The translations under genes and the position numbers were made by a program. A model generated the notes under the pieces. The model ran no database searches and was not told where the DNA came from. It saw only the letters and a list, made by a program, of their open reading frames with translations. From an uncultured Gammaproteobacteria bacterium (GTDB lineage: Bacteria; Pseudomonadota; Gammaproteobacteria; Burkholderiales; Burkholderiaceae_C): DNA of 64,000 bases. Location of the stretch: positions 13,864-77,863 of the forward strand of contig CAWATB010000017.1 in assembly GCA_963784815.1 (NCBI GenBank). The letters are read 5' to 3'. The stretch's first letter is position 1; each line of letters begins with the position of its first letter. This document shows positions 56,397 through 60,680 of this stretch, one piece after another.

Positions 56397-57215
56397 ATGT
56401 TCCAAACACTTTTGATCTGTTTCCGTGAAGGGCTGGAAGCCCTGCTGGTCATCGCCATCGCCACGCTTTACCTGCGCAAAACCGGGCGTCTGAACCTGCT
56501 GCTACCGCTGCGCGCCGGGGTGGGTGTCGCCGCCCTGCTGTCTTTGGTGCTGGGCTGGGTGCTGTCGCAGGTGGGCGCCGTGTCGCCCGCAGCCGAGGGC
56601 GGCATGGCCCTCGTGGCCGCCGCTGCAGTGGCCTGGTGTGTGGTGCACATGCGCAGTGCGGGCAAAGGCATGGGCCAGGAGATTGCGCAGCGCATGGACC
56701 GCGCCAGCGTGCTGGAGGGCCCGCGCGCTGGGATGGCCGTTTTCCTGTTCGCCTTGTTCATGGTGGGCCGCGAAGGCGTGGAAACCGCCACCATGCTGGC
56801 CGCGCTGGCCCGCAGCGCCGAGCTGGGTTATATGGCCTGGGGCGGCGCGGCGGGCTTGGCGCTGGCCATTGCGATTGCCTGGGCGTGGACTCGGTATGGC
56901 CGTGCGGTCAACCTCGGCCGGTTCTTCCGCGTCACGTCGTGGTTCATGGCCGTGTTTGCGCTGCAACTAGTGGTCTATGCGTTTCATGAGTTCACCGAGG
57001 GCGGCGTGTTCCCTGGCATCGACAACGCTTACTGGCATGCAGCCACAGAAGACTTGGCTGAGGGCAGCATTGCGCAGGCCATCTCACTGGCGCTGGTGGT
57101 GGTGCCCACGGCGTGGCTAGGGGTGGCGCACTGGCGGGAGCGCCGCGCGGCACCGGCCCCAGCGAAGGCATCAACGGCCAATGTGTCGTCTTCAGCCACG
57201 TCCGCCGTGCAGTAG
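56397..57215 (+). CDS. FTR1/EfeU-family iron permease
   Basis: Two RExxE motifs (REGLE, REGVE); about 7 TM helices. Confidence 0.88.
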   Translation: MFQTLLICFREGLEALLVIAIATLYLRKTGRLNLLLPLRAGVGVAALLSLVLGWVLSQVGAVSPAAEGGMALVAAAAVAWCVVHMRSAGKGMGQEIAQRMDRASVLEGPRAGMAVFLFALFMVGREGVETATMLAALARSAELGYMAWGGAAGLALAIAIAWAWTRYGRAVNLGRFFRVTSWFMAVFALQLVVYAFHEFTEGGVFPGIDNAYWHAATEDLAEGSIAQAISLALVVVPTAWLGVAHWRERRAAPAPAKASTANVSSSATSAVQ

Positions 57216-57371
57216 TTGGCACAACGCCTGGGCTCCGCGTGGGGATTTTGAACGCGAACACAACTCAACCTCACACGCAGCCATTGCGTACGAACAGGGG
57301 CTTGCCTTGCATGGGTTGATATTGATCACGACAATCGGGGCCGAATCAACACAACAGAACAAGGAGTCCCC

Positions 57372-57848
57372 ATGAAAGGCGACGCACAAGTTATTGGCCA
57401 TCTGCAGGCCCAGCTCAAGAACGAACTCACGGCCATCAACCAGTACTTCTTGCATTACCGCATGCTCAAGCACTGGGGTTTCGACAAGCTGGCCAAGAAG
57501 GAATACTCAGAGTCGATTGGCGAGATGAAGCATGCCGACTGGCTGATGGACCGCATCTTCACGCTGGACGGCCTGCCCAACCTGCAGGACCTGGCCAAGC
57601 TGCAAGTTGGCGAAGACGTGCCGGAGATTCTGGCGTGCGACTTGAGCTCTGAACTGGGCGCCCAGGCCACCATCAAGGACGGCATTGCCCACTGCGAATC
57701 CGTGCGTGACTACGTCTCGCGCGACCTGCTGCAAAAGATTCTGGACGACACCGAAGAGCACATCGACTTTCTGGAAACCCAGATTGATCTGATCGCCAAG
57801 GTGGGCTTGCAAAACTATTTGCAATCGCAAATGGGTGAGGTGGAGTAA
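57372..57848 (+). CDS. bfr: Bacterioferritin
   Basis: MKGD, NELTAINQYFLH, EMKHAD, EEHIDFLETQ; RBS AAGGAG. Confidence 0.97.
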   Translation: MKGDAQVIGHLQAQLKNELTAINQYFLHYRMLKHWGFDKLAKKEYSESIGEMKHADWLMDRIFTLDGLPNLQDLAKLQVGEDVPEILACDLSSELGAQATIKDGIAHCESVRDYVSRDLLQKILDDTEEHIDFLETQIDLIAKVGLQNYLQSQMGEVE

Positions 57849-57924
57849 CTGCGGCGCTCTCTCTACCGCTTTCTGGGGACTCGGCGGGGCTGGGTACCCT
57901 GAAGACGGCGGGGAAGATTTCATC

Positions 57925-57947
57925 AACGGGCTGCGGCCCGTTTTTTT
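57925..57947 (+). terminator. Intrinsic terminator after bfr
   Basis: CGGGC-TGCG-GCCCG followed by T7. Confidence 0.8.
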
Positions 57948-58028
57948 ATGCCCGTCTGCCGTCGAGTGCGCGCTCTTGAGCGGACGGTGTTGTTGCAAAT
58001 GCACAAACCTTGGTATTCCCCAAAAAAA

Positions 58029-58060
58029 TGCAATGAGAATTGTTCGCAATTGAATAAACT
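58029..58060 (+). promoter_or_regulatory. Fur box next to a putative -10 (TAAACT)
   Basis: GCAATGAGAATTGTTCGCA resembles the Fur consensus GATAATGATAATCATTATC; upstream of an iron receptor. Confidence 0.7.
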
Positions 58061-58066
58061 CAACGT

Positions 58067-58250
58067 TTCAGCCAGCAGCGCACCTCACTGAGAAGACTGG
58101 GCGACGGGCCTTTCGAGCCCGCCTCGACGCTTCTTCTCTGTTCTCTTCTGCCAGCCAACGCTCAAGCCAGAGGGCCTTGCCTTCGGCTCCGCGCACCAGC
58201 GCGGTACCGCCCGTTGGCTGCGCGTCTTCAGCTCGCAGCCTTTATTTTTT
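58067..58250 (+). ncRNA. Candidate Fur-regulated structured leader RNA or sRNA ending in a terminator
   Basis: No ATG in the interval; several perfect stems; terminator GGCTGCG/CGCAGCC plus TTTATTTTTT. Function is inferred only. Confidence 0.45.
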
Positions 58251-58532
58251 CTACTTTTCGACCGCTATCGCTGGCCATCAGATGGCGGGGTGGAGTCAAA
58301 AAGATTTTCACAAAAATCGCGCGCCAGCGAGCGAATGACATGCAACGCCGCCGACCCATGAATGCCACCCCGCTTTGCTCACAGCCTTGCATCGCCAACG
58401 CGTGCCCACTCTGATTTCACTGCTTTCTCGCCGGACACCGCGCCCCAGACAGCAGGCCACTTTTGGCCCGCGCCAGGCACCGCGTTGCACGGGTTTTCTG
58501 CCAACTGCGTTGTGCTTACTCCAAGGAAAATC

Positions 58533-60680
58533 ATGCACGCTCACACCCCAACCCGCCACCGTCTGAACCCGCTGATGGCCGCCTTGCTCGCGACTCTCTG
58601 TGGCCCTGCACTGGCGCAGCCGACCCCGCCGCAGACACTCGGCGAAGTCACTGTGCAGTCTGGCGCAAACGACGACGGCTATTCACCAGCGGCCAGCACT
58701 GCTGCCACCAAGGGCCGCGCGCCCCTGCGCGATGTGCCGCAGGCCGTCAACGTGGTGCCCGCGCAGCTGCTGCGCGATCAAGGCGCCCGCTCGATGGAAG
58801 ACGCTCTGCGCAACGTGCCCGGTGTGGCCATGAGCCACGGCGACGGGCAGCGGGACCAGGTGGTGATTCGCGGCTTTACGGCGATTGCCGACCAGTTTGT
58901 GGACGGCGTACGGGATGACGCCCTGTACTTTCGCGACCTTGCCGACATCGAACGCATCGAGGTGCTCAAAGGCCCAGCCGCCGTGTTGTATGGCCGTGGC
59001 TCATCCGGCGGCTTGATCAACCGTGTTACCAAAAAGCCAAAGTTTGGTGAAACCTCGGGCGAGGCCACGCTGGGTCTGGGCAGCTTTGATTTCCGCCGCG
59101 CTACGGCCGATGTGAATGTGGGCATCAGCGACACCACTGCTTTTCGCATCAATGCCGCCGTGGAAGACTCGGGCAGCTACCGCGAGCAGCAGTTCGTCAA
59201 GCGCCACAACTTTGCGCCCTCGCTTGCCCTCAAGCTCGCTGCGCAGACCGACCTGCTGCTGCAATACACCAACGCCCGCGACAAGCGCCTGACGGACTTC
59301 GGCATCCCCGCGCTCAATGGACGCCCGGTCAATGTGCCCGCCCGCACCTACTACGGCTCCAGCAACGCCGCGCAGGATGACACCACCACCAGCACGATGC
59401 AGTCGTTCGCAGCCACGCTGAACCACCGTTTCAACGATGCGTGGTCGGTGCGAAACGTCACGCGCGTGTACGACTACGCACTGGACCGGTACAACACGCT
59501 GCCCAGCGGCACCACCGACCCGGTGAATCTGACAGTGGGCCGCACGCGGGCCTTTATCCTGCGCGACGAAAAAGGAGTCTTCAACCAGACCGACGTCACC
59601 TGGCGCAATCAGCTCGGCGGGTTCAAGCAAGAGTGGCTGATGGGCATGGAGTTGGGCCAGCAGAAAAAACGCTCTGAATCCGTCTCGGGCGGTGCGGACC
59701 GTGTGTCCATCTTCAACCCCACAGGCGCGGCTCCCGTTATCCCGGCAGCCAACTACAACGCCGACAACGCCATCCCCAGCCACACCACGCAAGACACAGC
59801 CGCGCTGTACTGGCAAGACCAGATCACGCTGGCGCCGCAATGGAAGGCGCTGGTGGGCGCGCGATACGACGTGTTCAAGCAGCAAACGGCTTACGACCGC
59901 AAGCTCACAACGCTTTCTCGCACCGATCGGAAGTTCAGCCCCCGCGCTGGTCTGGTCTGGCAACCCAGCGACACCGTGTCGTACTACGTGTCATACAGCA
60001 AGTCGTTCCAGCCTTCTGCCGAAGCCTTTGCGCTGTCGGCCAGCAACACCGCCAGCGAACCCGAGATCACGCAAAACAAAGAAATCGGCGTCAAGCTGGA
60101 CTTGCTGGATGGGCGCATGAACATCACCGGGGCTCTCTTCAATTTGGAGCGCACCAACATCAAAAACACCGACCCAGCCAATCCCTCGCGCCAGATCAAC
60201 GTGGGCACACAGCGCACCAATGGGTTGGAGCTGACCACCAACGGCCGCCTCCCTGGTCGCTGGGATGTGAGCGCTGGCTATGCCTGGCTGGATGGCCGCA
60301 TGACGAAATCTCTGGCCACCACGGGGTCGCTGCAATTGCCTACGGCAGCAGTCCCGGCACAGGGCAAGGTGGCCGCCCTCACACCACGCAACTCGGCCTT
60401 CCTGTGGGCCATGAAGGACATGGGGCACGGCCTGCGCGTGGGCGGCGGCGTTAACTACGTGGGCGCGCGCTTCACGTCGCTGACCAACCTGGTCACCTTG
60501 CCCGGCTACACCACGCTGGACGCGGCGCTGCAGTACACGCTGGGCCAGTGGGATGTGGACGTCAATATCAAGAACCTGGCCAACCGCAAATACTACGTAT
60601 CGGCCCATGGGAGCAATGACAACCTGATCCTGCCGGGGTCGCCGCGCACGCTGCAAGTCACGCTGCGCACGCGGTTCTGA
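58533..60680 (+). CDS. TonB-dependent siderophore receptor
   Basis: RBS AAGGA, signal peptide, TonB box EVTV, plug motifs (LRNVPGV, IRGF, ERIEVLKGPAAVLYG), NLANRKY, C-terminal F. Confidence 0.93.
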   Translation: MHAHTPTRHRLNPLMAALLATLCGPALAQPTPPQTLGEVTVQSGANDDGYSPAASTAATKGRAPLRDVPQAVNVVPAQLLRDQGARSMEDALRNVPGVAMSHGDGQRDQVVIRGFTAIADQFVDGVRDDALYFRDLADIERIEVLKGPAAVLYGRGSSGGLINRVTKKPKFGETSGEATLGLGSFDFRRATADVNVGISDTTAFRINAAVEDSGSYREQQFVKRHNFAPSLALKLAAQTDLLLQYTNARDKRLTDFGIPALNGRPVNVPARTYYGSSNAAQDDTTTSTMQSFAATLNHRFNDAWSVRNVTRVYDYALDRYNTLPSGTTDPVNLTVGRTRAFILRDEKGVFNQTDVTWRNQLGGFKQEWLMGMELGQQKKRSESVSGGADRVSIFNPTGAAPVIPAANYNADNAIPSHTTQDTAALYWQDQITLAPQWKALVGARYDVFKQQTAYDRKLTTLSRTDRKFSPRAGLVWQPSDTVSYYVSYSKSFQPSAEAFALSASNTASEPEITQNKEIGVKLDLLDGRMNITGALFNLERTNIKNTDPANPSRQINVGTQRTNGLELTTNGRLPGRWDVSAGYAWLDGRMTKSLATTGSLQLPTAAVPAQGKVAALTPRNSAFLWAMKDMGHGLRVGGGVNYVGARFTSLTNLVTLPGYTTLDAALQYTLGQWDVDVNIKNLANRKYYVSAHGSNDNLILPGSPRTLQVTLRTRF

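Follow-up and report, generated by a model that had tools for sequence, protein, structure and literature searches.

A Fur-boxed leader RNA with predicted competing P1 and terminator helices between bfr and a TonB-dependent receptor gene, from a small family found in a few Acidovorax species

The DNA downstream of the bacterioferritin gene, bfr, in the stretch analysed here (64,000 nucleotides in all, hereafter the window) encodes a structured leader RNA, preceded by a putative Fur-controlled promoter and followed by the gene for a TonB-dependent receptor, receptor B. With its relatives it makes up a small and as yet undescribed family of leaders, restricted to a few Acidovorax species, albeit one of a known general kind. 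It contains a conserved three-way junction whose closing helix shares bases with an intrinsic terminator. The reading we prefer, and to which we would give about an even chance, is that the RNA is the Fur-repressed, cis-acting 5' leader of an iron-uptake unit and serves as a leaky or regulated attenuator. All features described below are on the plus strand unless otherwise stated.

Anatomy and folding of the leader

A −10 hexamer, TAAACT (58055-58060), can be read in the sequence and would place the transcription start near 58067. Close to the expected 5' end of the RNA lies M1, CAGCCAGCAGC (58069-58079), a motif which is identical in eight of eight type I leaders. It is followed by stem-loop 1 (SL1, 58086-58140), the outer stem of which (GAGAAGA, 58090-58096, with TCTTCTC, 58132-58138) is found in both the MFE and the centroid structures and encloses a CGGGC/GCCCG hairpin. 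Every homologue has a hairpin at the position of SL1, of unrelated sequence, and this is the fastest-evolving segment of the leader. A pyrimidine-rich (C/U) tract, from about 58127 to 58151, is partly paired in SL1 and partly predicted to be unpaired; it is pyrimidine-rich in all homologues, with conservation limited to its last few bases (YCUGCC).

The next element is the three-way junction (58152-58220), with a folding energy of -38.1 kcal/mol alone. It is closed by P1, a perfect 9-bp helix in which CAGCCAACG (58152-58160) pairs with CGTTGGCTG (58212-58220). The first-pass annotation had described this stem as enclosing one hairpin, CCGCGC-ACCA-GCGCGG (hairpin B, 58189-58204). The stem and hairpin B are both there, but a second hairpin was missed (hairpin A, 58165-58188); since P1 encloses both A and B, the element is a three-way junction. 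An intrinsic terminator (58216-58250) follows directly, GGCTGCG (58216-58222) pairing with CGCAGCC (58234-58240) ahead of TTTATTTTTT (58241-58250), in which nine of ten bases are U. The terminator hairpin alone has an energy of -13.7 kcal/mol. The start codon of receptor B, an ATG at 58533, lies 283 nt past the U-run, in keeping with the distance of about 280 nt given earlier; the Fur-like box, TAAACT, the SL1 stem, the C/U tract, the 9-bp stem and the overlapping terminator of the first-pass annotation were likewise all recovered.

The proposal that P1 and the terminator are mutually exclusive was upheld. The 3' strand of P1 and the 5' arm of the terminator have five nucleotides in common (58216-58220), and in the full RNA the two states are only 0.7 kcal/mol apart (-70.1 kcal/mol for P1, -69.4 kcal/mol for the terminator), with pair probabilities of 0.80 and 0.15, respectively. 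With so little energy between them, one would expect a terminator that is either leaky or regulated. When the 5' strand of P1 was blocked in silico, the downstream hairpin formed in six of six homologues. The folding energy of the RNA as a whole is unexceptional (z = -1.8), so the case for the reality of the structure rests on conservation rather than on energy.

An octamer is repeated in the leader, as CAGCCAGC at its 5' end, as CAGCCAAC within P1, and as GUUGGCUG, termed M3, in the 3' strand of P1; it is unchanged across homologues. M3 has alternative partners, M1 among them, the calculated duplex energies being -16.4 kcal/mol with M1, -19.5 kcal/mol with M2 and -14.3 kcal/mol with the terminator arm.

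These elements suggest how the leader may work as an attenuator. At low iron, Fur would leave its site at 58032-58050 and transcription would start near 58067. The nascent RNA would fold into SL1, the pyrimidine tract and the junction closed by P1. With P1 formed, polymerase would read through into the receptor B gene; with P1 prevented, the terminator would form, GUUGGCUG being both the 3' strand of P1 and the 5' arm of the terminator, and an RNA of about 180 nt would be released. On the simplest model, both this short RNA and read-through transcripts would be made. The likeliest point of control would be the frozen octamer, in its 5'-end copy (CAGCCAGC) and its P1 copy (CAGCCAAC). A trans-acting factor binding there, whether protein or RNA, would free the terminator arm.

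The promoter region and the distribution of the leader

The upstream neighbour of the leader, bfr (57372-57848; Pfam Ferritin PF00210, E 2e-36), is kept in 55 of the 60 genus genomes searched. It is followed by an intrinsic terminator (57925-57948), a terminator scan match with a 7-bp stem and a T-run, which like bfr is near-universal in the genus. Since bfr ends at its own terminator, the leader is a separate transcription unit. A 64-codon ORF spanning the region before bfr (57181-57375) was considered as Bfd and rejected, having neither a Pfam match nor a Cys motif. In the intergenic DNA 5' of bfr, GATATTGATCACGACAATC (57316-57334) shares 13 of 19 positions with the Fur consensus of E. coli.

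Overlapping the leader promoter is a Fur box, AATGAGAATTGTTCGCAAT (58032-58050), with one mismatch to a betaproteobacterial-style consensus. It is the sole match in the 64-kb window, where shuffled sequences gave an expectation of zero, and comparison of loci places a Fur box at the same site across the genus; Fur probably binds here. A genome-wide scan with the E. coli 19-mer was discarded as too noisy. The consensus promoter scan did not call the TAAACT −10, the position of which is kept in homologues as TAAACT, TAGAAT, TAAGAT or TAGACT. Some 60-75 nt 5' of the expected start there is a further motif, GTTGTTGCAAATGCACA (57989-58005), present in nearly all Acidovorax loci downstream of bfr, whatever the leader type (I or II). 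It may be the site of a second regulator. It occurs once in the window's own genome, and neither the Fur-box variant nor GTTGTTGCAAATGCACA was found a second time elsewhere in that genome.

The Rfam search of the whole window returned nothing at the gathering score, and a search of 57850-58540 at E-values up to 10 gave nothing meaningful, the best regional E-value being 2.3. No second copy of the leader was found in its own genome. Homologues were sought by BLAST and with a covariance model in the GTDB genus whose named members are Acidovorax. Intact copies are present in 5 of 66 other species (G229 and G220, together with G258, G261 and G259, which came via the covariance model), and truncated copies, retaining the 5' two-thirds and lacking the 3' strand of P1, in two more (G219 and G239). 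The synteny of the homologues is that of the window: bfr, terminator, Fur box, −10 and leader. The leader of G229 is 89-93% identical to that of the window and has the same layout, whilst that of G220 is split by about 43 kb of an apparent Mu-like prophage carrying genes for a Mor-family activator and a Dam-like methyltransferase. The two halves of the G220 leader lie in L014 (about 2150-2290) and L041 (1357-1620), with a possible CCAGC target duplication at both junctions.

Wider searches extended this distribution very little. An exact-pattern scan of all GTDB species gave real matches only in the leader-carrying genomes already named, a metagenome scan added one near-copy of the G261 leader and nothing more, and a second covariance model found no leader in 150 other genera of the family. 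Family-wide BLAST matches of 30-60 nt in seven genera were rejected as homologues, those inspected being inside coding regions. Four of the matches inspected are a conserved SpoU/TrmH-type methyltransferase motif read antisense, with a shared peptide of 14 residues. In the window, hairpin B and its flanks give this SpoU/TrmH-like 14-residue match on the minus strand (58171-58214), probably by chance.

The leaders that follow bfr in the genus are of two types, which have in common the motif GTTGTTGCAA..GCACA, the Fur box and the −10. Type II leaders are the commoner (L013-L038, 19 Acidovorax loci); after the −10 they carry two invariant CAGCCAGC-like direct repeats which flank a covarying hairpin. 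They were tried as members of the junction model and do not fit it. Further along they have a conserved CTGGAGCC and a small-ORF start, ATGCTGCGC, 5' of a DUF3649-like gene. At the same place in G246, a close relative (L011), the upstream motif runs, just past the bfr terminator, into sequence resembling a receptor signal peptide, without a Fur box or leader; this looks like another rearrangement at the same spot. Outside the window, contig C28 of the same genome (assembly 81% complete) has at about 540-570 kb an AT-rich, repeat-like stretch, unlike the remainder of the GC-rich assembly, which may be contamination or an island.

Within this family the junction is the best preserved part. The first-pass annotation had made its proposal depend on conservation of the stems in relatives, and homologues do keep the structure: in an alignment of six junction sequences, 96% of pair cells hold standard pairs, versus 31-41% when the partners are slid. 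The covariation it had proposed as a check is present in part. Hairpin A has been rebuilt with new sequence from lineage to lineage, and three of its pairs show compensatory changes, whereas P1, invariant at eight of its nine pairs, and the stem of hairpin B, wholly invariant, give no covariation among these six sequences, which represent about four independent lineages. The strands and loops of the junction vary freely between lineages. With only about four independent lineages in the homologue set, conservation of the junction structure constitutes moderate evidence, not proof. A coding explanation was rejected: an ORF crosses the junction in G258, G261 and G219, its start codon and frame are not those of G259, G239 or the window, and the changes in hairpin A are moreover compensatory.

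Divergence between the window and G229 points the same way. The junction has diverged by 0.043, versus 0.154 at four-fold sites of the receptor gene, and the five changes found in the 99 nt of junction plus terminator all fall on unpaired bases; by this comparison junction and terminator have changed at about a third of the rate of four-fold sites. SL1 with the C/U tract (0.19, no lower than the neutral proxy, 0.154) and the segment 58250-58337 (0.17, neutral-like) look unconstrained.

Conservation of the terminator is less uniform. Its 5' arm is kept in all six homologues, and a U-run follows the competing hairpin only in the window, in G229 and, weakly, in G220. G258, G261 and G259 have the hairpin without the U-run and hence no intrinsic terminator, so that attenuation is not family-wide. 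The earlier proposal of an attenuator or leader is accordingly retained for the Fur-boxed, structured leader with alternative helices, and narrowed to these few genomes as regards termination. G219 and G239 keep their cargo without the 3' strand of P1, and the junction would therefore be dispensable for expression there.

The downstream genes and the competing readings

The genes behind the leader differ by species. In G259 they comprise an intact receptor gene, TBDR-A, followed by DUF3649-like, PepSY_TM and DUF3325 genes; in G258 and G261 a small ORF beginning like TBDR-A precedes a DUF3649-like gene; and in G239 there is a third receptor. TBDR-A is also intact behind the same leader in G220. 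In the loci compared, the leader always lies between the conserved Fur promoter and an iron-uptake cargo, as a 5' UTR would.

In the window the cargo is receptor B (58533-60680; Pfam Plug and TonB_dep_Rec_b-barrel). The protein is 96.4% identical in amino-acid sequence to that of G229 despite 15% change at four-fold sites, so the gene is under purifying selection. Between leader and gene lie 24 codons (58340-58414) which align to TBDR-A of G220 at its true start, one also found in G259, and then, from 58420 to 58532, the upstream DNA native to receptor B, which has 79% identity to the intergenic segment 5' of the orthologue in G234. This remnant of TBDR-A, with receptor B's own upstream sequence resuming at about 58420, points to a deletion of about 4 kb in the window and G229, which looks to have put receptor B directly behind the leader. 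The remnant ORF is also a possible upstream ORF before receptor B. In G234 the receptor B orthologue is operon-internal, as the last gene of an operon. Scans of 58250-58532 found no Fur box and no recognisable promoter, the promoter scan being the same one that missed the Fur promoter. For an intact and constrained receptor gene whose upstream region shows no Fur box and whose orthologue is operon-internal in G234, iron control would most simply come from read-through of the leader.

The principal alternative to a cis-acting leader is that the RNA is a Fur-repressed, trans-acting sRNA, an analogue of RyhB, PrrF, NrrF or BrrF, which arose from a 5' UTR when the window lineage gained a strong terminator and which pairs with its targets through the C/U tract or the 5' end carrying CAGCCAGC. 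The shape of the gene is classic for such an RNA: a Fur-boxed promoter past the bfr terminator, a structured RNA of about 180 nt and a strong terminator, the U-tail of which could bind Hfq. The C/U tract is in part predicted to be single-stranded. In the literature searched no Fur-regulated sRNA has been described for the host family, BrrF being reported only from Burkholderia, Pandoraea and Cupriavidus (PMC7377471). Against this, SL1 and the putative seed tract diverge between the window and G229 at 0.19, where the neutral proxy is 0.154, and, when matched to about 7,700 crudely defined translation starts, the tract gave duplex energies no better than those of five shuffled seeds. The top matches from this crude set of gene starts were mostly doubtful GTG ORFs, the start region of bfr stood only at the 28th percentile, and the starts of receptor B and of the TBDR-A remnant were unremarkable. 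Neither the divergence of the tract nor its pairing thus supports the earlier suggestion of an sRNA that would target bfr through a C/U seed. Furthermore, the RNA is single-copy, is confined to few species and has no Rfam sRNA match, and most homologues are without the terminator and so would yield no discrete short RNA; a transcript ending at the terminator is predicted for the window and G229 only. We consider the sRNA reading unlikely, whilst noting that such a role could coexist with that of a leader.

A second alternative is that the leader is an evolutionary leftover, an ancestral 5' UTR which lost its original cargo in the ~4-kb deletion, the terminator now ending an orphan transcript and receptor B being expressed from its own upstream region. 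The TBDR-A remnant and the neutral-like divergence of 58250-58337 would be expected of such a relic, and the locus is a rearrangement hot spot, with the prophage in G220, truncations in G219 and G239 and a fusion in G246. The segment 58421-58532 is also very conserved (divergence of 0.027 from G229) and could hide a promoter for receptor B, making read-through unnecessary. This reading fits poorly with the constraint on junction and terminator, where changes spare the paired bases, and with a Fur box and −10 that remain intact, and no promoter or Fur box was recognisable in 58250-58532. Loss of Fur control from a siderophore-type receptor would also be unusual among Fur regulons. Taken together, we regard it as distinctly unlikely.

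A bolder version of the preferred reading, about as improbable as the leftover, is that of a multi-state iron-uptake leader of a new kind. In it GUUGGCUG would pair with either copy of the octamer or with the terminator arm, and an octamer-binding protein or RNA would provide a second input over Fur. In the window lineage, having gained the U-run and lost its original cargo, the leader would be on its way to becoming an independent sRNA gene under Fur control.

Finally, a riboswitch for a small molecule or metal, in which the junction would be the aptamer and its ligand would stabilise P1 and prevent termination, has the standard ON-switch layout in its favour (an aptamer-like three-way junction, with the 3' strand of P1 overlapping the terminator), as well as the precedent of cis-acting RNAs before TonB receptor genes, such as the cobalamin riboswitch at btuB, but this early suggestion is highly improbable, given that stems and octamer are frozen while junction strands and loops drift, the reverse of known ligand-binding aptamers, that two species keep their cargo after losing half of P1, that three lineages are without the terminator, and that the family, which only a few Acidovorax species carry, has no Rfam match.

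Significance and relation to known systems

Post-transcriptional control of iron in the Comamonadaceae is essentially uncharted, and the literature searched describes neither a RyhB-like RNA nor leader-based control of a TonB receptor in this family. The leader described here offers a concrete candidate, joining a Fur promoter, a three-way junction kept by its homologues and a terminator in near balance with P1. Its natural variants may serve as controls, some having the U-run and some not, others missing half of P1 or interrupted by a prophage. It also shows how one promoter-leader cassette has come, by one rearrangement after another, to serve different receptor cargo. Only a handful of Acidovorax species carry it, which limits its reach, and its mechanism is ordinary in kind.

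A number of parallels can be drawn with RNAs of iron regulation elsewhere. PrrF1 and PrrF2 of Pseudomonas aeruginosa and RyhB of E. coli resemble the leader in having a promoter overlapped by a Fur box, a structured RNA of short length and an intrinsic terminator. PrrH arises by read-through of a terminator, and the leader possibly likewise reads through into downstream sequence. There is, however, no sequence or Rfam similarity to these RNAs, the leader has no conserved seed and no target signal, and its homologues are plain 5' UTRs of uptake genes, lacking terminators. BrrF of Burkholderia cenocepacia is again betaproteobacterial, induced by iron starvation, under Fur control and in an iron-gene neighbourhood, albeit a cleavage product of the hemP mRNA's 3' end and without a Fur box of its own (PMC7377471). 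The RNA described here is by contrast a leader at the 5' end, served by a Fur box of its own, and its sequence shows no relationship to that of BrrF.

Among cis-acting RNAs, the cobalamin riboswitch upstream of btuB is likewise a structured 5' leader that controls a TonB-dependent receptor; the present leader differs in lacking an Rfam match, in its unconserved junction nucleotides and in having a control that would begin with Fur at the promoter. Attenuators of the TRAP-trp, PyrR-pyr and Bgl/Sac type switch between terminator and antiterminator through a protein or an RNA. No binding factor is encoded adjacent to the leader and CAGCCAGC matches none of their motifs, so the likeness is one of logic only: there as here, some bases belong both to an antiterminator helix and to an intrinsic terminator, and a short motif repeated in the 5' strand of the antiterminator provides a possible site for a factor acting in trans.
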